A DNA stretch of 64,000 bases from an uncultured Clostridium sp. (lineage in GTDB: Bacteria > Bacillota > Clostridia > TANB77 > CAG-508), in the NCBI GenBank assembly GCA_945865665.1, contig CAMBEE010000005.1, positions 17,186 to 81,185 of the forward strand. The letters run 5' to 3'. Shown here one piece after another: positions 1,102 to 63,760 of this stretch (position 1 is its first letter; each line of letters opens with the position of its first letter). A program made the position numbers and the translations under genes. The notes below the pieces were generated by a model. It worked only from the letters and a program-made list of their open reading frames with translations, was not told where the DNA came from and searched no databases.

Positions 1102-2007
1102 ATGGGATTTTTAATAGTATTATTAGTTATAATTTTGGTTATAGCATTCAAATCAATTAAAATCGTTAAACAAGCTGAGGTTTATGTAATTGAAAGATTG
1201 GGCAAATTCTACAAAGTTGCAGATGCTGGTCTTACAATTATAATTCCATTTTTTGACCATGTAAGAAGCGTAGTTAGCTTAAAACAACAAACAATGGATG
1301 TTCCACCTCAAGGAGTTATTACAAAAGATAATGTAACAATTACAATAGACACTGTTGTTTTCTATCAAATAACAGATCCTGCAAAAGCAGTTTATGAAAT
1401 TCAAAGTTTGAAAAAAGGTATTGAATACCTAGCAATTACAACAATTCGTGATATCATTGGTAAAATGGACTTAGACGAAACATTTAGTTCAAGAGACGGT
1501 ATTAATAATCAATTAAGAGTTGTTCTTGACGAAGCTACTGATAGATGGGGATGTAAAATTGATAGAGTTGAAATCAAAGATATTACACCACCTGCTGATA
1601 TCAGAGATGCAATGGAAAAAGAAATGAACGCAGAAAGAAATAAAAGAGCTTTAATTCTTGAATCTGAAGCTCAAAGACAATCTGCTGTAACAATTGCTGA
1701 AGGTAAAAAACAAGCAGCTATTCTAGAAGCTGAAGCTGATAAAGAAGCTAGAATTACCAGAGCAGCCGGTGAAGCACAAGCTATAAAAGAAGTTGCTGAA
1801 GCTAAAGCTAAAGAAATCCAAATGGTTTATGAAGCTATTAAGAAATCAGACCCTGATGAAAAATTAGTTCAATTAAAATCACTTGAAGCTTTAGAGAAAG
1901 TTGCTGATGGAGAAGCTAACAAAGTATTTATTCCTTTTGAAGCAACTAGTGCACTTTCAAGTTTAGGTGCAATTAAAGAAGTTATAAAAGATGAAAAGAA
2001 AAAATAA
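1102..2007 (+). CDS. SPFH/band-7 domain protein (stomatin/prohibitin/FloA-like)
   Basis: Single N-terminal TM helix, SPFH core (QAEVYVIERLGKF...), Ala/Glu/Lys-rich coiled-coil C-terminus. RBS AAAGGAG lies inside the track ORF, so the start is more likely the ATG at 1102 than the GTG at 1084. Confidence 0.8.
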   Translation: MGFLIVLLVIILVIAFKSIKIVKQAEVYVIERLGKFYKVADAGLTIIIPFFDHVRSVVSLKQQTMDVPPQGVITKDNVTITIDTVVFYQITDPAKAVYEIQSLKKGIEYLAITTIRDIIGKMDLDETFSSRDGINNQLRVVLDEATDRWGCKIDRVEIKDITPPADIRDAMEKEMNAERNKRALILESEAQRQSAVTIAEGKKQAAILEAEADKEARITRAAGEAQAIKEVAEAKAKEIQMVYEAIKKSDPDEKLVQLKSLEALEKVADGEANKVFIPFEATSALSSLGAIKEVIKDEKKK

Positions 2008-2011
2008 AAAA

Positions 2012-2049
2012 CGGGATTATGGGACGGGTCTCCAATCCCCTTTTTTTTT
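2012..2049. terminator. Family-1 palindromic repeat (CGGGATT..GGGACGGGTCTCC..AATCCCC) plus T-run; bidirectional terminator between the SPFH gene and argS
   Basis: GC-rich hairpin followed by T9; the same unit recurs at 2105, 22084, 58724, 58766 and 60407. Confidence 0.7.
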
Positions 2050-2104
2050 AGAACATATATGAAAATTTCCAATTATCGTTCCCAACTTCACCTAAATTAA
2101 AAAT

Positions 2105-2135
2105 TAGGGATTGGAGACCCGTCCCCTAATCCCTA
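2105..2135. repeat. Family-1 palindromic repeat, inverted copy
   Basis: TAGGGATTGGAGACCCGTCCCCTAATCCCTA, reverse complement of the 2012 copy with one difference. Confidence 0.7.
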
Positions 2136-2139
2136 ATTT

Positions 2140-3888
2140 TTACATTTTTTCTGGCATTTCTATTCCCAACAAATTAGCCCCTTGTTTCAAAACTTCTGAT
2201 GTTGCATATGTTAAATATACACGAGCATTTTGAACATCTTTATCTTCAACAATAATTTTATTTTCATTATAAAAACTACTATAAGCTTTTGCCAAATCAA
2301 TTAAATATCTTGCAAGAATAGATGGTTCATTTTTATCTGTTACTTGAACCAATACATCTTCAAAATTATAAATCAATTTTAAAATCGCCATTGAATAATC
2401 ATCTGATAAATTTTCTGTTTTTACATCTTCGATTTTTGGTAAATATCCTGCTTTTTCTAATACACTTTTTGTTCTAACATATGTGTATTGAATATATGGG
2501 CCTGTTTCACCTTGGAAATTTAAAATTGTATTCCAGTCAAATACTTCATCTTTTATTCTTGATGCTGACATATCATTAAATATAACTGCACCTATTCCAA
2601 CTTTTTTAGCAACTTCTTCTTTATTTTCTAAGTCCGGATTTTTTTGTTCTATTATTTCTTTTGCTCTAGAAATTGCTTCATTCAACAATTCTTCAAGTTT
2701 GATAGTATTTCCTTCTCTTGTTGACATTTTTCCTTCTGGTAATAATACCATTCCAAATGATACATGCTCTAGTCCGTCTGTATATTTTTCATCTAATCCT
2801 AAAAGTTTTGCTACTTCAAATACTTGTTTAAAGTGCAATACTTGTTCATATGATGTTACATACAATGCTTTATCAAAGTCATACGTTCTAGCTCTATATA
2901 GTATTGCTGCTAAATCTCTTGTTGCATATGTTGTAGAACCATTTGATTTTTCTATTATACATGGTGTATTTATTCCTTTATCTTCTAGGTCTATTATTTT
3001 TGCCCCTTGTGATTCTACTAGTTTACCTGTTTTTTGTAATATATCTATTACTTCTGGCATTTTATCTGAGTAGAATGATTCTCCATTCCAAGAATCAAAT
3101 TTGCTTCCAAGTAAATCATATACTTTTTGGAATTCTTGTAAACTCAGTTCTCTAAATTTTTTCCAAATTTCTACACAATATGGGTCTCCATCTTCTAATT
3201 TCTTGAAGTTGTTTCTACAATTTTCTAATATTTGTTCATCATTCTTGCATGCTTCATTTATTCTTATATAAATTTTTGTTAATTCATTTATTGGATCTTT
3301 TTCAATGTCATATTCTTCTCCCCACATTTTGTATCCTTCTATTAGTTTTCCGAATTGTGTTCCATAATCTCCTAAATGATTGACTCCTGTTACATTATAT
3401 CCCAAATATTTGTATATATTATATAATGCTCCACCTATTACTGTTGAACGTAAGTGACCAATGTGAAATGGTTTTGCAATGTTTGGTGCTGAATAATCTA
3501 TTACTATATTCTTTTCTTTTCCTATTTCTGATTTTCCATATTGTTCTGTTTTTGATATTTCTTCTAATACTTCTTTTGCAAGAGTTTCTTTGTTTATAAA
3601 GAAGTTTAAGTATCCTCCTGCTACTTCTATTTTTTCTATTTCTTCTACTGTTTCTATTTTTTCTTTTATTTCATTTGCGATTGCTGGTGGTGCTTTTCTT
3701 AATTCTTTTGCTAATCTGAAACATGGAAACGCATAATCTCCATTTTTACTGTCTTTTGGAGTTTCAATGTAACTCTCTAATTCTTTCTCATTTATTTCTA
3801 TTGTTTTTGATATTTGTTTTGCTATTATTTTCTTAAAATTCCTCAATTTATTCATTCCTTTCTTAGGACATTTTTCCAAAATCCACAT
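2140..3888 (-). CDS. argS: arginine--tRNA ligase
   Basis: HIGH motif (PFHIGHLRS), typical ArgS length and C-terminal anticodon-binding region. An alternative start at 3855 (MNKLRNF) is possible. A TTGACT-17-TATAAT promoter lies upstream and no T-box was seen. Confidence 0.9.
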   Translation of the reverse strand: MWILEKCPKKGMNKLRNFKKIIAKQISKTIEINEKELESYIETPKDSKNGDYAFPCFRLAKELRKAPPAIANEIKEKIETVEEIEKIEVAGGYLNFFINKETLAKEVLEEISKTEQYGKSEIGKEKNIVIDYSAPNIAKPFHIGHLRSTVIGGALYNIYKYLGYNVTGVNHLGDYGTQFGKLIEGYKMWGEEYDIEKDPINELTKIYIRINEACKNDEQILENCRNNFKKLEDGDPYCVEIWKKFRELSLQEFQKVYDLLGSKFDSWNGESFYSDKMPEVIDILQKTGKLVESQGAKIIDLEDKGINTPCIIEKSNGSTTYATRDLAAILYRARTYDFDKALYVTSYEQVLHFKQVFEVAKLLGLDEKYTDGLEHVSFGMVLLPEGKMSTREGNTIKLEELLNEAISRAKEIIEQKNPDLENKEEVAKKVGIGAVIFNDMSASRIKDEVFDWNTILNFQGETGPYIQYTYVRTKSVLEKAGYLPKIEDVKTENLSDDYSMAILKLIYNFEDVLVQVTDKNEPSILARYLIDLAKAYSSFYNENKIIVEDKDVQNARVYLTYATSEVLKQGANLLGIEMPEKM

Positions 3889-6094: not shown

Positions 6095-6222
6095 TCGACC
6101 AATGGGGACGTTGTTAAATTGGTTAAATATATTAATTATATTTAACATCATTTTATATTTATTGTATCAACCAATTTAAGAACGTCCCCGTTGGTTGATT
6201 TAACAACGTCCCTATTGGTCGA
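6095..6222. repeat. Family-3 composite hairpin repeat (ACCAATGGGGACGTTGTTAAATTGGTT modules in inverted orientation)
   Basis: Nested inverted copies of a 27-nt hairpin module in the clpP-tig spacer; the same module forms the 33-bp terminal repeats at 59781-60010. Confidence 0.7.
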
Positions 6223-9790: not shown

Positions 9791-9910
9791 AAAAACAAAC
9801 CGTCGTGGGGACCGTCAAAAAGAGTCGAAAAATTTATTTTTCGTTACTCTTTTTAGATGGGAGAGGTTTGAATTTTTTATACCATTACTCTTTTTTATGA
9901 TTTTAAAGAA

Positions 9911-22017: not shown

Positions 22018-22083
22018 GTTTCCTCCTAGTATTTTTTATTATGATAATTTTATAATAAGGGTGATTTTTTGTCAATATAAAAT

Positions 22084-22112
22084 CGGGATTGAAGACCCGT
22101 CCCCCAATCCCG
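22084..22112. repeat. Family-1 palindromic repeat
   Basis: CGGGATTGAAGACCCGTCCCCCAATCCCG between pheT stop and the YhgE gene. Confidence 0.7.
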
Positions 22113-22118
22113 ATTTTT

Positions 22119-24491
22119 TTATTTTCTTATTTCTAAACCTTTGTTTTCTAAATCTTTAATAATATTATCTAAAATAGTATTAATTTCTTCATCATTTAAA
22201 GTTCTATCAGGTGTACCAAATGTTAATGAATATGCAATACTTCTCTTATTAGAATCAATATTTTTACCTTCATAAACATCGAATACGTTTATATCTAATA
22301 ACAATTTTCCAGCCTTTTTCTTAATTAACATTTCAACTTCTTTTGATGTCATATTTTTGTCAACTAATAATGCTAAATCTTTTTTTACAACAGGGAATTT
22401 TGAAATTTCTTTGAATTTCATTTTTCCTACTCTTTTTTCTAGCAATTTGTCTAAGTTGATTTCCATTACATAAACCGCTTCTTTTTCTACTGATGGATGT
22501 ATTCTTCCTACAATTCCTACAACATCATTATTTACTGAAATTTCTGCAGTTTGACCTGGATGGAATTCTGCTGGCATTTGTTTTGGTAATACAAAACTGT
22601 ATCTTCCTGCATATCCTAAATAGTCTAATAATTCTTCTGTTACACCTTTAATGTCATAGAAGTCAACATTTTTGCTATGTCCTATTCCTTCATAATATTT
22701 TCCTGTCATTAACACACAGATTTTTTGATTTTCTCCGTATTCTTCACCTTTTTTCCAGAATCCTTTTCCAATTTCAAAAAGGCAAACATCTTTGTTTTCA
22801 CGTGCTTTGTTGTATTCATAAATTTTATATAATGAAGGTATCATGCTATATCTTAATGTGTTTCTTTCTTCTGTTATTGGGTCTAATAATCTGACTTCTT
22901 CAAATTCGTCTGTTGTGAATTTGTGTACGTCTTTGTCATTTATTAAGATATATGATAATGTTTCGTTTAATCCCATATTTGACATTTTTGCTCTTATTTT
23001 TCTTGCTGTTTTGTCTAGATGTCCCATTTTCATTGGAACTACTGGTAGTTTACCTTGGATATTGTCAACTCCATAGATTCTTCCGACTTCTTCTATTAAA
23101 TCTGCTCTAATTGATATATCAATTCTTCTTGTTGGTACTGTAACGATTACAGTCTCTTCTTTTACATCTGTTTTAAAGTCTAATTTTCTAAATACATCAA
23201 CAATATCTTCTTTTGATATGTTTGTTCCTAACACATCATTGATTTCTTTATATGATATTTCAATTACTTTTTCTTCATTTTTTGTAACATCGTATTTTAC
23301 AATTCCTGTTTCAATTTCTGCATCTGCATATTTTTGTAATAATGTACATGCTCTTTCCATTGCCATATAAGTTCTTGCAGGGTCAAGTCCTTTTTCAAAT
23401 CTGTTGCTTGCTTCACTTCTTAATATTTTATTTGATGTTTTTCTTACTTTTACTGAATCAAATATTGCTGATTCGATTATTACATTTTTAGTTGTTTCTT
23501 CAACTTCTGTATCTAATCCCCCCATAACACCGGCTAATCCGATAGCTTTTGTTCCGTCTGTTATAACTATATCTTCATTTGATAAAGTTCTTTCTGTGTT
23601 ATCTAGTGTTGTTAATTTCTCTCCATCTTCTGCCATTCTAACAACTATTTTGTTGCCCAAATTATCTGCATCGTAGAAGTGTAATGGTTGACCTAATTCT
23701 AGCATTACATAGTTACTGATGTCTACAACATTGTTTATTGGTCTAATTCCACAAGCGATTAGTCTGTTTTTTATAAATTCTGGACTTTCTTTTATTGTTA
23801 CATTTTTAGCTTTTTTTGCTAAGAATAGTCTACAATTTTCTGTATCAACTCCAACTGAAAATTCTTTATTTACATCTTCTCCGCTTTCTTTGTATCCATA
23901 TTCAACCGGTTTTACTTTTTTGTCATAAATTGCTCCTAGTTCATAAGCCATACCTAAAATACTTAATAAATCTCCTCTATTTGCAGTTAATTCAAAATCA
24001 ATAATGCCATCATCTAATCCCATATATTTAATTGGGTCTTCTCCAACAGGTGCATCTGCTGGTAATTCATGTATTCCATTTTTATCTGCTTCAGATAAGA
24101 ATTTTTTATCGATTCCTATTTCATATAAAGCACATAACATACCATTTGACTCTTGGCCTCTTATCATACCTTTTTTGATTTTGAAGTCTCCTGGAAGTTC
24201 TGCTCCAACTTGTGCGACAATTACTTTTATGCCTTTTCTGGCATTTGGTGCACCACAAACTATATCTAATATTTCACTTCCAATATCAACTTTACATAGA
24301 TGTAAGTGGTCAGAATCTGGATGCATTTCACATTCTTTTATTTCTCCTATTACTAGTTTTGTTGCATTTACTAATTTTTCTGCAGAATCATATTCATTTC
24401 CAGCTTTTGTCATCGCTTCTGCTATATCTTTTACACTTAATTCGTTATCTAAATCTATATAGTCTTTTACAAAATTTAAACTTAAATTCAT
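22119..24491 (-). CDS. pheT: phenylalanine--tRNA ligase beta subunit
   Basis: 790 aa with tRNA-binding, B3/4, B5 and FDX-ACB domain order; follows pheS. Confidence 0.95.
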   Translation of the reverse strand: MNLSLNFVKDYIDLDNELSVKDIAEAMTKAGNEYDSAEKLVNATKLVIGEIKECEMHPDSDHLHLCKVDIGSEILDIVCGAPNARKGIKVIVAQVGAELPGDFKIKKGMIRGQESNGMLCALYEIGIDKKFLSEADKNGIHELPADAPVGEDPIKYMGLDDGIIDFELTANRGDLLSILGMAYELGAIYDKKVKPVEYGYKESGEDVNKEFSVGVDTENCRLFLAKKAKNVTIKESPEFIKNRLIACGIRPINNVVDISNYVMLELGQPLHFYDADNLGNKIVVRMAEDGEKLTTLDNTERTLSNEDIVITDGTKAIGLAGVMGGLDTEVEETTKNVIIESAIFDSVKVRKTSNKILRSEASNRFEKGLDPARTYMAMERACTLLQKYADAEIETGIVKYDVTKNEEKVIEISYKEINDVLGTNISKEDIVDVFRKLDFKTDVKEETVIVTVPTRRIDISIRADLIEEVGRIYGVDNIQGKLPVVPMKMGHLDKTARKIRAKMSNMGLNETLSYILINDKDVHKFTTDEFEEVRLLDPITEERNTLRYSMIPSLYKIYEYNKARENKDVCLFEIGKGFWKKGEEYGENQKICVLMTGKYYEGIGHSKNVDFYDIKGVTEELLDYLGYAGRYSFVLPKQMPAEFHPGQTAEISVNNDVVGIVGRIHPSVEKEAVYVMEINLDKLLEKRVGKMKFKEISKFPVVKKDLALLVDKNMTSKEVEMLIKKKAGKLLLDINVFDVYEGKNIDSNKRSIAYSLTFGTPDRTLNDEEINTILDNIIKDLENKGLEIRK

Positions 24492-25699: not shown

Positions 25700-26010
25700 C
25701 AAATTTTCGTGTACTTTTATCCTTTTGTCCCATTAGGGGACGGTTCTTTTTGAGACATCGATTCTAAATAAGACATCGATGCAAAACAAAAATTGCCTTT
25801 AAAAAGGACATTTAAAAATCCATTTCTATTCTATTAGCACTTATTTGTGCTTATAGGACGAAATGGATTTCCGTGGTACCACCTAAATTTATTAATTTTT
25901 CTTTATACTTTAAAACATTTTTAATATACTCTTTTATTAATAAAATGCATATTTAATATAAAGTTACTAACCTCATTTTAGTTTTAACGGTGCAACCGCT
26001 TCTTCCTAAT
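25700..26010 (-). promoter_or_regulatory. T-box leader (Phe) with terminator/antiterminator
   Basis: On the minus strand, AGGTGGTACCACGG (fwd 25872-25885) matches the T-box consensus. It overlaps the 5' arm of an 11-bp terminator stem (AAATCCATTTC / GAAATGGATTT, fwd 25815-25871) followed by a U-run. Exact 5' boundary unknown. Confidence 0.65.
25726..25757 (-). repeat. Family-2 hairpin repeat between the T-box terminator and the pheS RBS
   Basis: Minus strand: TGTCTCAAAAAGAACCGTCCCCTAATGGGACA. Confidence 0.7.
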
Positions 26011-26034
26011 TTTTATTCTTGTTGGGTATCTTAT

Positions 26035-26065
26035 GTCCCAAACAGAACCGTCCCTAATGGGACAT
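26035..26065 (+). repeat. Family-2 hairpin repeat, inverted relative to the 25726 copy
   Basis: TGTCCCAAACAGAACCGTCCCTAATGGGACA. Confidence 0.7.
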
Positions 26066-26282
26066 TTTCAAAAGAAGTCCTAAAAAGTGAAATTTCTATA
26101 TATAGTTTTAAATATCTTTCAGCCTCGGATATTTTCTCTGTTTGTTTATTTATATATATACTTTGCTTTTTAATTGGATTTATTTTATTTGTTAATCTTT
26201 TATTATGTTATCATAGTTTGAGCTATTTTTCAAGCTTTTTTGAAAATTTAAATTTGTTTATTTTTAATAATTTTGCATTTTT

Positions 26283-35026: not shown

Positions 35027-35040
35027 TTTTCCTCCTTTTG

Positions 35041-35070
35041 AGACACATGGGACAGTTTGATTTTGTCTCA
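35041..35070 (-). repeat. Family-2 hairpin repeat abutting the fruK RBS
   Basis: Coding strand: TGAGACAAAATCAAACTGTCCCATGTGTCTCA then AAAAGGAGG-N5-ATG. Confidence 0.7.
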
Positions 35071-48790: not shown

Positions 48791-48821
48791 TGTCGCATTG
48801 GGGACAGTTCTGTTTGATACA
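48791..48821 (-). repeat. Family-2 hairpin repeat about 20 nt upstream of the dnaE RBS
   Basis: Coding strand: ATGTATCAAACAGAACTGTCCCCAATGCGAC. Confidence 0.65.
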
Positions 48822-48932
48822 TCAGTTCCCAGAAGGACATTTTTCTGTATTATATTATCTTTTTTTCTTAAAGTCAATGGCAATAAAATTGAAAAGGGTC
48901 CAATATACATTTGTATATTAGACCTTTCTCTT

Positions 48933-49405: not shown

Positions 49406-49762
49406 TGGTGGAGATGAGGGGAGTCGAACCCCTGTCCATAATACTTTCCAAATAGACCTCTACAAGTTTATTTTATCTTTTATTTTCATCTTTAACTCGC
49501 GGATAAACACGCTAATTAAAAATATAGCTTTATAAAATACCCACTATTTCTAAAGCCAAAATAGCTTTGTTTCCTACTTTAGTTATAACACCCTTACTAA
49601 ATCAGTAGGCTATTTAGTTCAGATGACGTTGCAAACTAGGCAGCGTATGCTAATTCTTCGTTGTTAGCGTTTATTTTTATTTTCTCGTTTTTTAAGTGGC
49701 CAACGAGAATCCACTACTTGCTATCTGTTTTTCTGGTAATATGTCGAAACCTTTACATCCCC
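49406..49762 (-). ncRNA. ssrA: tmRNA (ssrA)
   Basis: 5' end GGGGATGTAAAGGTTTCGAC..., 3' tRNA-like end GGACAGGGGTTCGACTCCCCTCATCTCCACCA. Internal tag frame GCT AAC AAC GAA GAA TTA GCA TAC GCT GCC TAG gives a tag ending LAYAA. Confidence 0.85.
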
Positions 49763-58705: not shown

Positions 58706-58723
58706 ATTTTCCTTTCTAAAAAT

Positions 58724-58793
58724 CGGGATAGGGGGACGGGTCTTTAATCCCTAAAAAATTTTTTAGGGATTAAAGACCCGTCCCCCTATCCCG
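58724..58793. repeat. Family-1 palindromic repeat, tandem inverted pair
   Basis: CGGGATAGGGGGACGGGTCTTTAATCCC-A6T6-GGGATTAAAGACCCGTCCCCCTATCCCG between nrnA stop and truB start. Confidence 0.75.
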
Positions 58794-58798
58794 ATTTT

Positions 58799-59780: not shown

Positions 59781-60010
59781 GTGAACCAATGGGGACGTTG
59801 TTAAATTGGTTGAATTACTAAATGTGTTTACTAATTAAAATTTTTTATATATTAGGAAAGTTATGCAACTTTCCTAATATATAAAATTACATTGCACAGA
59901 AAATTTATTTCATAAATTTTCGCGCACGAACAAATTTACTGAAAATTGAAAATTTTCAGATTTGTTCTTTTAAATTTTCAACCAATTTAACAACGTCCCC
60001 ATTGGTTCAC
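59781..60010. repeat. Family-3 MITE-like element (230 bp) bounded by perfect 33-bp inverted repeats
   Basis: GTGAACCAATGGGGACGTTGTTAAATTGGTTGA ... TCAACCAATTTAACAACGTCCCCATTGGTTCAC, with internal palindromes and no ORF. It sits between rbfA stop and nrnA start. Confidence 0.75.
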
Positions 60011-60376: not shown

Positions 60377-60406
60377 TTTGTCTACCTCCTCTTAATTGCA
60401 TTTTTT

Positions 60407-60435
60407 CGGGATTGGAGACCCGTCCCCTAATCCCG
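60407..60435. repeat. Family-1 palindromic repeat in the infB-rbfA spacer
   Basis: CGGGATTGGAGACCCGTCCCCTAATCCCG; no U-run follows on the transcribed (minus) strand. Confidence 0.7.
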
Positions 60436-60441
60436 ATTTTT

Positions 60442-63400: not shown

Positions 63401-63489
63401 GCTAAGCCTAGCTTTTTTGCTATTTCATAAATTTTTACCTTACCCAATAACATCACCCCCATCGTATTTTTTTTGAATTGAATTTGCAA
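60442..63489 (-). CDS. infB: translation initiation factor IF-2, with an Asn/Arg-rich low-complexity insert
   Basis: Conserved N-terminus [17 protein letters not shown]-domain ([17 protein letters not shown]), C-terminal beta-barrels. The real start is probably 63453 or 63462; the 63489 track start is TTG. About 120 aa of NRN/NFN low-complexity is encoded around 62500-62880. Confidence 0.95.
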
Positions 63490-63760
63490 AATTTATATCT
63501 TTTATACCAATTACAGCTTTGTTACTTTTTCCTATCGTTTTGCTTAATTCATCAATAGTCCCATCTATTATTATTGGTATTTTATAATTCTCACATAATT
63601 TTATAAATTTACTTTTTGTTCTTTCTGAACTCTCATTAGAAACTATTATTAACTTTGCTTTTCTTTTTGTTATAGTTTCTTCAACACTATCTGCTCCAAA
63701 TGCTACTTTTCCGGCTTTCATTGCTAGTCCAATTAGTCCTAATATATTATTATTTATCAA
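63440..63760 (-). CDS. ylxQ: L7Ae-family RNA-binding protein (YlxQ-like)
   Basis: 106 aa, L7Ae fold signature, conserved position between ylxR and infB. Confidence 0.8.

Follow-up and report, generated by a model that had tools for sequence, protein, structure and literature searches.

The stretch of DNA analysed here (the window, 64 kb in length) has a GC content of 28% and carries housekeeping genes, nearly all of them on the minus strand. Its gene content comprises argS, clpX, clpP, tig, nth and pheST along with a fructose PTS operon that includes fruK, dnaE, tmRNA and the cluster ylxQ-infB-rbfA-nrnA-truB, with ylxQ located at 63440-63760. The tmRNA gene (49406-49762, minus strand) specifies the tag peptide ANNEELAYAA. 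The genetic code is the standard one: open reading frames are intact under it, which rules out a Mollicute origin with TGA read as Trp. Among the matches listed, MAG contigs of uncultured gut Clostridia (Hadza human samples) and 'Clostridium sp. 28_17' are 96-98% identical to the window.

Dispersed among these genes are 15 units of a short hairpin repeat that carries the pentamer GGGAC (GTCCC when read from the opposite strand). All are extragenic and, taken together, they sit at the ends of about one third of the genes in the window. Grouped by stem class (F1 to F4, with F5 and F6 seen in related genomes), they are:

2006-2046, plus strand: F1 unit, CGGGATT-ATGGGAC-GGGTCTCC-AATCCCC, its stem extended by an A-run and a T-run; directly after an hflK-like gene, left member of an F1 pair at a convergent gene junction
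2098-2142, minus strand: F1 unit, right member of the same pair; directly after argS, the GGGAC sense being that of the argS transcript
6098-6123, plus strand: F3 unit, ACCAAT-GGGGACGTTGTTAA-ATTGGT; shortly before the ribosome-binding site of clpP, GTCCC sense in clpP mRNA
6166-6199, minus strand: F3 unit, ATCAACCAA-CGGGGACGTTCTTAAA-TTGGTTGAT; downstream of tig, GGGAC sense in the tig transcript
6194-6221, minus strand: degenerate F3 unit, CGACCAATAGGGACGTTGTTAAATCAAC, overlapping the unit at 6166-6199; arms decayed, core retained
22077-22119, minus strand: F1 singlet, beginning at the pheT stop codon; GGGAC sense in the pheT transcript
25726-25757, plus strand: F2 unit with the T-box terminator on one side and the ribosome-binding site of pheS on the other; GTCCC sense in mRNA
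26033-26065, minus strand: F2 unit, an insertion in the Stem II apical loop of the pheS T-box leader; GGGAC sense in the leader transcript
35039-35070, plus strand: F4 unit, TGAGACACA-TGGGACAGTTTGAT-TTTGTCTCA; abuts the fruK ribosome-binding site, GTCCC sense in mRNA
48791-48840, plus strand: F2 long form (~50 nt) with imperfect arms; spans the dnaE 5' leader from just past a promoter-like site (TTGACT-17-TATAAT) to the ribosome-binding site
58718-58798, no strand assigned: F1 inverted doublet (units 58723-58753 and 58764-58794) between nrnA and truB, an ~80-nt near-perfect palindrome
59782-59813, plus strand: F3 unit adjoining the nrnA start; right-hand member (in gene direction) of a pair around a 190-bp insert
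59978-60009, minus strand: F3 unit just after the rbfA stop; left-hand member of the pair around the 190-bp insert
60406-60436, minus strand: F1 singlet, 6 nt past the infB stop codon; flanked by A-runs on both sides in gene sense, so that the sense transcript has no U tract

A preliminary description of this DNA had listed 15 positions with such hairpins, and the quoted sequence is present at every one of them. The core also occurs more often than chance would predict: CGTCCCC is found 10 times in the window where 0.29 +/- 0.52 occurrences are expected, and none of 100 dinucleotide shuffles reaches 10. Considering the readings of both strands, GGGAC/GTCCC occurs at 35 sites in the window, 15 of which lie within an inverted repeat with the motif adjoining the 5' arm (shuffles: mean 2.9, maximum 6, n=100). 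Two of these 15 are chance matches inside genes and two further copies (6194 and 48791) are real, albeit imperfect, and miss the arm criterion, which leaves a final total of 15 units. GGGAC outside hairpins is as common as base composition predicts (~19 observed vs ~19 expected in the window). Across the window and the related loci listed, arms are present at 51% of GGGAC sites, a figure inflated by the choice of loci for one family, compared to 8-15% of sites of ten pentamers taken as controls and 10% when the geometry is reversed. Motif orientations in the window are even (8 and 8), so there is no replication-strand bias of the motif across a window whose GC skew has the same sign throughout. 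One additional GGGGAC site, directly after nth (9796-9823, plus strand; CCGTCGTGGGGACCGTCAAAAAGAGTCG), has no convincing enclosing stem; this site, at 9808, is either a decayed unit or a chance match and was left out of the count.

The F1 pattern GGGATTNNNGACCCGTCCCNNNATCCC recurs in more than 97 8-kb blocks from at least eight species-representative genomes; among the matches listed, the F1-bearing genomes are all gut Clostridia MAGs (human, goat). The pattern is absent from viral contigs, and a phage origin is rejected on that ground. Genomes with the hairpins harbour at least six stem classes, F1 being the commonest:

F1: GGGATT..AATCCC
F2: TGTCGC-TTTG-GGGAC-GGTTCTGTTT-GAGACA, often lengthened to a ~55-nt hairpin
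F3: AACCAAT..ATTGGTT
F4: GAGACA-NNN-GGGAC-AGT..TGTCTC
F5: TTGTCAA-AA-GGGAC-GCC..TTGACAA, in which the decayed cores GGAAC and GGGAT are also seen
F6: GGGAATTA-GGGAC-GTTCC-TTAAAATCCC

Three stem families had initially been recognised. Their stems are indeed distinct, but the second of them splits into two classes, one with TGTC..GACA arms (the pheS, T-box and dnaE copies) and one with GAGACA..TGTCTC arms (the fruK copy), and relatives add two more, giving a total of at least six. Both the U.G wobble reported for the pheS copy, which fits the GTCCC sense of the unit at 25726-25757, and the swapped arms of the fruK copy are present. The long core GA[AC]C[CY]GTCCCC, proposed as common to all hairpins, holds up within families; across families the invariant part shrinks to GGGAC, after which there is usually a G or an A. 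Another loop, GGGGCCACCACACAA, is seen on a few F1 stems, and loops and stems seem to be exchangeable modules. Ordinary small-loop terminators are also numerous in these genomes, so that the hairpins with the motif constitute a distinct subset.

On the GGGAC strand, a unit is made up of an outer stem of 6-9 bp, a spacer or bulge of 1-4 nt, GGGAC followed by G or A, another 6-12 nt and the 3' arm, adding up to a hairpin of 27-32 nt in which GGGAC begins 8-11 nt from the 5' base. The preliminary description had placed the motif in the hairpin loop. It is located near the hairpin tip but is partly helical: over the outer stem and a 1-3-nt bulge lies a short apical helix (GGGGA/UCUYY), and the motif is its 5' strand. 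The F1 tip, GGGGA-CGGG-UCUYY, folds into a tetraloop on a 5-bp helix that includes G.U pairs; the other classes have shorter versions of it. The GGGAC sense folds more stably in 13 of 16 copies, and it is the GGGAC sense that is preferred at 3' ends.

A MAFFT alignment of 26 representatives of the six classes is nearly gap-free and has GGGAC as its only invariant columns, and RNAalifold recovers both the outer stem and the apical helix from it. Note that the classes differ in loop-length parity so that MAFFT cannot align both arms together; pairing was therefore measured by RNAalifold and by pair counts. According to the latter, 83% of cells are paired as opposed to 62% in shuffles, with none of 500 shuffles reaching 83%. 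The covariation score is 0.61 compared to 0.28, slid controls are all lower, and two-sided changes are seen at four of four outer pairs, although this outer-stem covariation is partly circular, the sequences having been picked for having arms. The apical helix, whose one-sided pattern is free of that circularity, behaves differently: the G side is fixed and its partner is either C or U (GC 17 / GU 8 at one pair, GU 12 / GC 11 at the next). In ~170 F1 units from the listed loci, where conservation is biased upward because the 8-kb blocks were picked by an F1 pattern that includes the motif, a pyrimidine nearly always occupies each of the two variable partner positions, A, G and T all occur at the bulge, and GGGGACGGGTCT is constant. 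Since hairpins occur in both orientations, mutation bias cannot explain why a fixed G strand should face a drifting C/T strand. Rather, the pattern points to a constraint on the sequence GGGGAC combined with pairing that tolerates G.U, as expected of RNA or possibly of folded single-stranded DNA. Wobbles and mismatches in the outer stem show no sense bias among F1 units (23 vs 23).

F1 units commonly come in pairs. In a relaxed F1 search of the listed loci, 136 of 180 units have an inverted partner no more than 150 nt away, with doublet spacers mostly 0-20 nt long, and the resulting doublets are long palindromes, perfect over up to 39 bp. The GGGAC-reading unit comes first, on either strand, in 51 of the 55 F1 inverted doublets in these loci; in 31 of the 55, the two members differ at no more than one base, whereas random pairs are identical in only 1.9% of cases. 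In 48 copies the F1 closing base finds its partner across the doublet instead of within the unit. Any comparison of conservation between doublets and singlets is affected by the selection of loci with the exact F1 pattern, which biases singlets toward the consensus.

Between co-directional genes of the listed loci, for which ORF calls are crude, we counted 35 cases of GGGAC alone, 14 of GTCCC alone, 29 GC doublets and three CG doublets; at convergent ends, GC doublets outnumber CG doublets by 8 to 1. GGGAC-sense singlets lie a median of 5 nt past the stop codon and GTCCC-sense singlets lie closer to the next start codon, the leftovers one would expect if a GC doublet decayed to either half. 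Within operons, flanks are A-rich on both sides in gene sense so that there is no U tract in the sense transcript; where an F1 singlet separates co-directional genes, the next 9 nt in gene sense contain 2.6 T on average. The stem at convergent junctions is lengthened by A and T runs in the style of a bidirectional terminator. F2 long forms, for their part, make up entire 5' leaders (dnaE, pheS and others) in either sense. The sequences next to 57 F1 singlets are A/T homopolymer runs, in each of the four possible combinations, and so are uninformative about target-site duplication.

Orthologous spacers of close relatives differ in what they carry. Between nrnA and truB, three genomes have a doublet and one a singlet, while in another the F1 arms enclose a different loop. 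Between rbfA and nrnA, where the window contains the F3 pair around the 190-bp insert, the same pair is also seen with the insert partly missing, and elsewhere there is a single F3 unit, equivalent to a deletion between repeated arms; more distant genomes have an F5 hairpin or a decayed GGGATG pair at this spacer. Among the orthologous spacers compared, we caught no insertion with an empty site and target duplication, and deletion between arms or local inverted duplication could also account for every polymorphism observed. Hairpins that vary between close strains might serve as typing markers.

How do these elements relate to known repeats? The preliminary description had likened them to REP/BIME elements, and their high copy number, extragenic location, inverted doublets and quick turnover at orthologous sites support the comparison. 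As in the REPs, BIMEs and REPINs of Enterobacteria, Pseudomonas and Stenotrophomonas, we find short imperfect extragenic palindromes in very many copies, several stem classes per genome with one short invariant motif common to all, sites inside operons as well as at gene ends, fast turnover, and singlets that resemble decay products. REPINs are inverted REP doublets that form long hairpins (PMC3116915), and the doublets described here likewise form long hairpins with a single dominant arrangement, accounting for 93% of cases here and 93% in that study; unlike in REPINs, spacers are mostly confined to the 0-20 nt given above. The invariant motif is a different one. REPs with different palindromes have in common a short head, GT(A/G)G, immediately 5' of the palindrome (PMC2817692), whereas the motif here is GGGAC within the apical hairpin; the head is absent at the 57 F1 singlets, the flanks of which are A/T runs followed by TC or TA.

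The host is different, too. REP/RAYT systems are recognised by a single-copy RAYT gene (a Y1 HUH transposase) flanked by two inverted REPs, and a 2010 survey encountered no RAYT homologs outside the lineage including gammaproteobacteria (PMC2817692). In the Firmicute genomes considered here, neither a RAYT-like gene nor another candidate reader turned up in the ~780 kb searched, a sample that we estimate had about an even chance of containing a RAYT gene flanked by F1. In the search for a RAYT/IS200-type binder proposed at the outset, tblastn with two approximate IS200-type queries returned one degraded IS200/IS605-type Y1 gene (L043 2026-2388, minus strand, in 'Clostridium sp. 28_17'), which lacks flanking GGGAC hairpins and adjoins a tandemly duplicated tRNA fragment. 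Pfam and NCBIfam searches of 40 window ORFs yielded no transposase and no nuclease. Since the elements lack the GT(A/G)G head and the ~780 kb searched yielded no RAYT gene, we class them as working like REPs and REPINs and not as formal members of the classical REP family.

Likenesses to other systems are more partial. Correia elements measure 100-155 bp and have TA target duplications and fixed terminal repeats, and the DNA uptake sequences of Neisseria terminators make up the stem and are over-represented across the whole genome, coding regions among it. Correia/NEMIS elements and uptake sequences resemble our hairpins in being short repeats in intergenic hairpins that become terminators or RNase III substrates once co-transcribed, but the motif described here is single, apical and confined to hairpins. 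An invariant short sequence at a hairpin tip with a stem free to vary is also a property of the origins at which HUH (Rep/relaxase) nucleases act, for example the nonanucleotide of geminiviruses and circoviruses or ssoA CS-6 of rolling-circle plasmids. These origins, however, occur once per replicon beside the nuclease gene, as opposed to hundreds of chromosomal copies here and no nuclease among the 40 window ORFs searched. BOX, RUP and SPRITE elements of Streptococcus pneumoniae are, like the present hairpins, Firmicute intergenic repeats with stable RNA folds affecting neighbouring expression; they are modular, ~100-200 bp long and conserved in sequence throughout, unlike 30-nt hairpins with interchangeable stems.

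The preliminary description did not recognise the motif from any described repeat family, and neither did we: Rfam scans, with gathering thresholds and by E-value, have no family for the hairpins, and a full-text literature search for the core sequences returned primer coincidences only. Rfam matches in the window are limited to tmRNA, tRNA and a sub-threshold T-box, along with generic miRNA models at the doublet. The latter (58718-58798) matches plant and animal miRNA-precursor models with E-values down to 1e-12, which we regard as spurious and as the signal of any long hairpin; near-perfect palindromes of ~80 nt trigger such false matches and may break assemblies. Among candidate binding sites, a K-turn of the type recognised by L7Ae (YlxQ) has tandem sheared G.A pairs next to a bulge of three nucleotides and is rejected because, by eye, no GA adjoins the stem on the 3' strand in the six class consensuses. 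Also judged by eye, CsrA GGA sites, boxA, the T-loop, SinR and Spo0A boxes, CRISPR repeats, attC sites and G-quadruplexes are poor fits, and an ECF-sigma promoter (GGAAC-N17-CGTC) fits only a few F2 copies.

What we have, then, is a lineage-specific superfamily of short extragenic palindromes in uncultured low-GC gut Clostridia, with at least six unrelated stem classes that share GGGAC(G/A). Our preferred reading, which we judge equally likely to be right or wrong, is that this is a REP/REPIN-like superfamily reused as gene-end RNA hairpins, the spread or retention of which depends on a putative factor that reads GGGAC. That a protein or RNA reads the pentamer, as the preliminary description supposed, is something we infer from the pattern of conservation. 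Copying or homogenisation would take place at the level of the doublet palindrome, and singlets would derive from doublets by deletion between repeated arms. The putative factor would recognise GGGAC on a folded single strand and so keep the pentamer fixed while stems are replaced, much as REPs with different stems have the GTAG head in common. Where genes converge, the hairpins and the A and U runs beside them may terminate transcription in both directions; within operons, where they immediately follow a stop codon or precede a ribosome-binding site and have no U tract, they might protect transcript ends, or the 35-bp duplexes of doublets might serve as RNase III sites. The C/U-only partner strand, together with the preference for the GGGAC sense after stops, argues for an RNA hairpin under selection and counts against DNA mobility as what is selected. 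The elements are thus probably both copied DNA and functional RNA structures at gene ends.

Imagine instead that mobility played no part and that the hairpins were purely a host RNA signal. A lineage-specific RNA-binding protein or ribonuclease would recognise GGGGAC as the 5' half of the apical helix and control termination, 3'-end protection or processing, hairpins on any stem would be selected to gain the motif, and opposite-sense copies would either be by-products of palindromic duplication or act on antisense transcripts. This scenario, unlikely in our view but deserving consideration, readily accommodates a fixed G side with a C/U-only partner, which is sensible only on GGGAC-sense RNA, the greater stability of the fold in that sense, its predominance after stops (35 vs 14 singlets, at a median of 5 nt), and the occurrence of the same motif on a different stem class at one orthologous spacer. 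If this were all, however, we would not expect ~180 near-identical F1 units at unrelated loci, which require copying rather than convergence, nor F2 leaders upstream of genes in both senses, nor the even split of outer-stem mismatches noted above; the search of ~780 kb for a candidate protein was also empty. A simpler proposal dispenses with a reader altogether: the units would be ordinary terminators or stabiliser hairpins, spread by local duplication and recombination, with GGGGAC/GUCYCC as a stable cap at 28% GC. The units do occur at gene ends, with A and T runs at convergent junctions, the same genomes contain many small-loop terminators, and the motif is paired in the preferred fold. Yet stability alone would permit G-to-A changes opposite U, or indeed any GC-rich cap, and we would then not expect a 5' strand that never changes across six classes even though its partner does, or a constant offset and size over unrelated stems. 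An intrinsic terminator combines a GC-rich hairpin and small loop with a direct U tract in the transcribed sense, a combination found in the convergent-junction copies but not overall, as operon hairpins have no U tract in gene sense; a consensus promoter and terminator scan calls none of the hairpins, although it is uninformative in AT-rich DNA. We consider this proposal improbable, in keeping with the original view that these are not plain, independently evolved terminators: stems of the classes are wholly different and covary, and a short motif is held fixed at a fixed position.

The motif might finally be a double-stranded DNA site, bound by a recombinase or regulator, with inverted pairs around invertible promoter segments, or related to uptake or restriction (GGGAC is the BsmFI site). 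The clpP promoter region, the pheS T-box leader and the 190-bp insert do each lie within an inverted pair, and orientation counts in the window are even. But most doublets are 0-20 bp apart, too close for inversion, the genes involved are housekeeping genes, and GGGAC outside hairpins is neither avoided nor enriched, unlike an uptake or restriction site. Since stem covariation and G.U pairs, moreover, indicate a folded single strand, we find this explanation very hard to credit. Returning to REP-like elements reused at gene ends, one could go further and posit a new sequence- and shape-specific reader of GGGAC hairpins across the lineage, either a non-RAYT enzyme that copies REPIN-like palindromes in Firmicutes or a protein that marks transcript ends. 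We put this forward tentatively and with more doubt than belief. If it were a transcript-end marker, hundreds of genes would be tagged with one and the same hairpin 'address' that directs termination, processing or stability and can be read from either flank of each intergenic region. REP-type repeats and domesticated transposases are known mainly from Proteobacteria, so that a Firmicute counterpart with an internal apical motif would widen the picture and imply a putative new nucleic-acid-binding activity in abundant uncultured bacteria of the human gut.

Several further observations concern individual spacers. The F1 stem CGGGATT..AATCCCG is joined to the other loop GGGGCCAC(C/T)ACA(C/T)AAA at three loci (L005 6733-6775, L056 3394 and 3622), one of which is the nrnA-truB spacer that holds a GGGAC doublet in other genomes. 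In the relative L086, the infB-rbfA spacer (equivalent to window 60377-60441) contains a 454-bp insertion with a small ORF between the infB stop and the F1 hairpin, and part of the same insert is present in L075.

The pheS T-box leader (25851-26183, minus strand) scores 65 bits in Rfam against a gathering score of 93. The F2 hairpin in its Stem II loop amounts to a 50-nt insertion, which helps drop the leader under the threshold, and a further insertion of ~35 nt lies ahead of the antiterminator region. Standard annotation would miss this leader.

A separate repeat of ~110-230 bp with two hairpins is found at 59840-59970 and has copies in relatives (L001 2606-2790, L026, L030 1497-1660, L039 7043-7150, L049, L054). 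Its first hairpin is TATATATTAGGAAAGTT-NNNN-AACTTTCCTAATATATA and its second GAACAAAT..CTGAAAAT..TTTTCAG..ATTTGTTC, followed by T's. It is absent from the orthologous spacer of L075, partly deleted in L086, and has a weak Rfam match to cow-rumen-4 (E = 0.2). Copies at unrelated loci are 96-100% identical, and the T-run of a terminator directly precedes each of them; this has the look of a terminator-targeting element, either a small mobile one or a gene for a small RNA.
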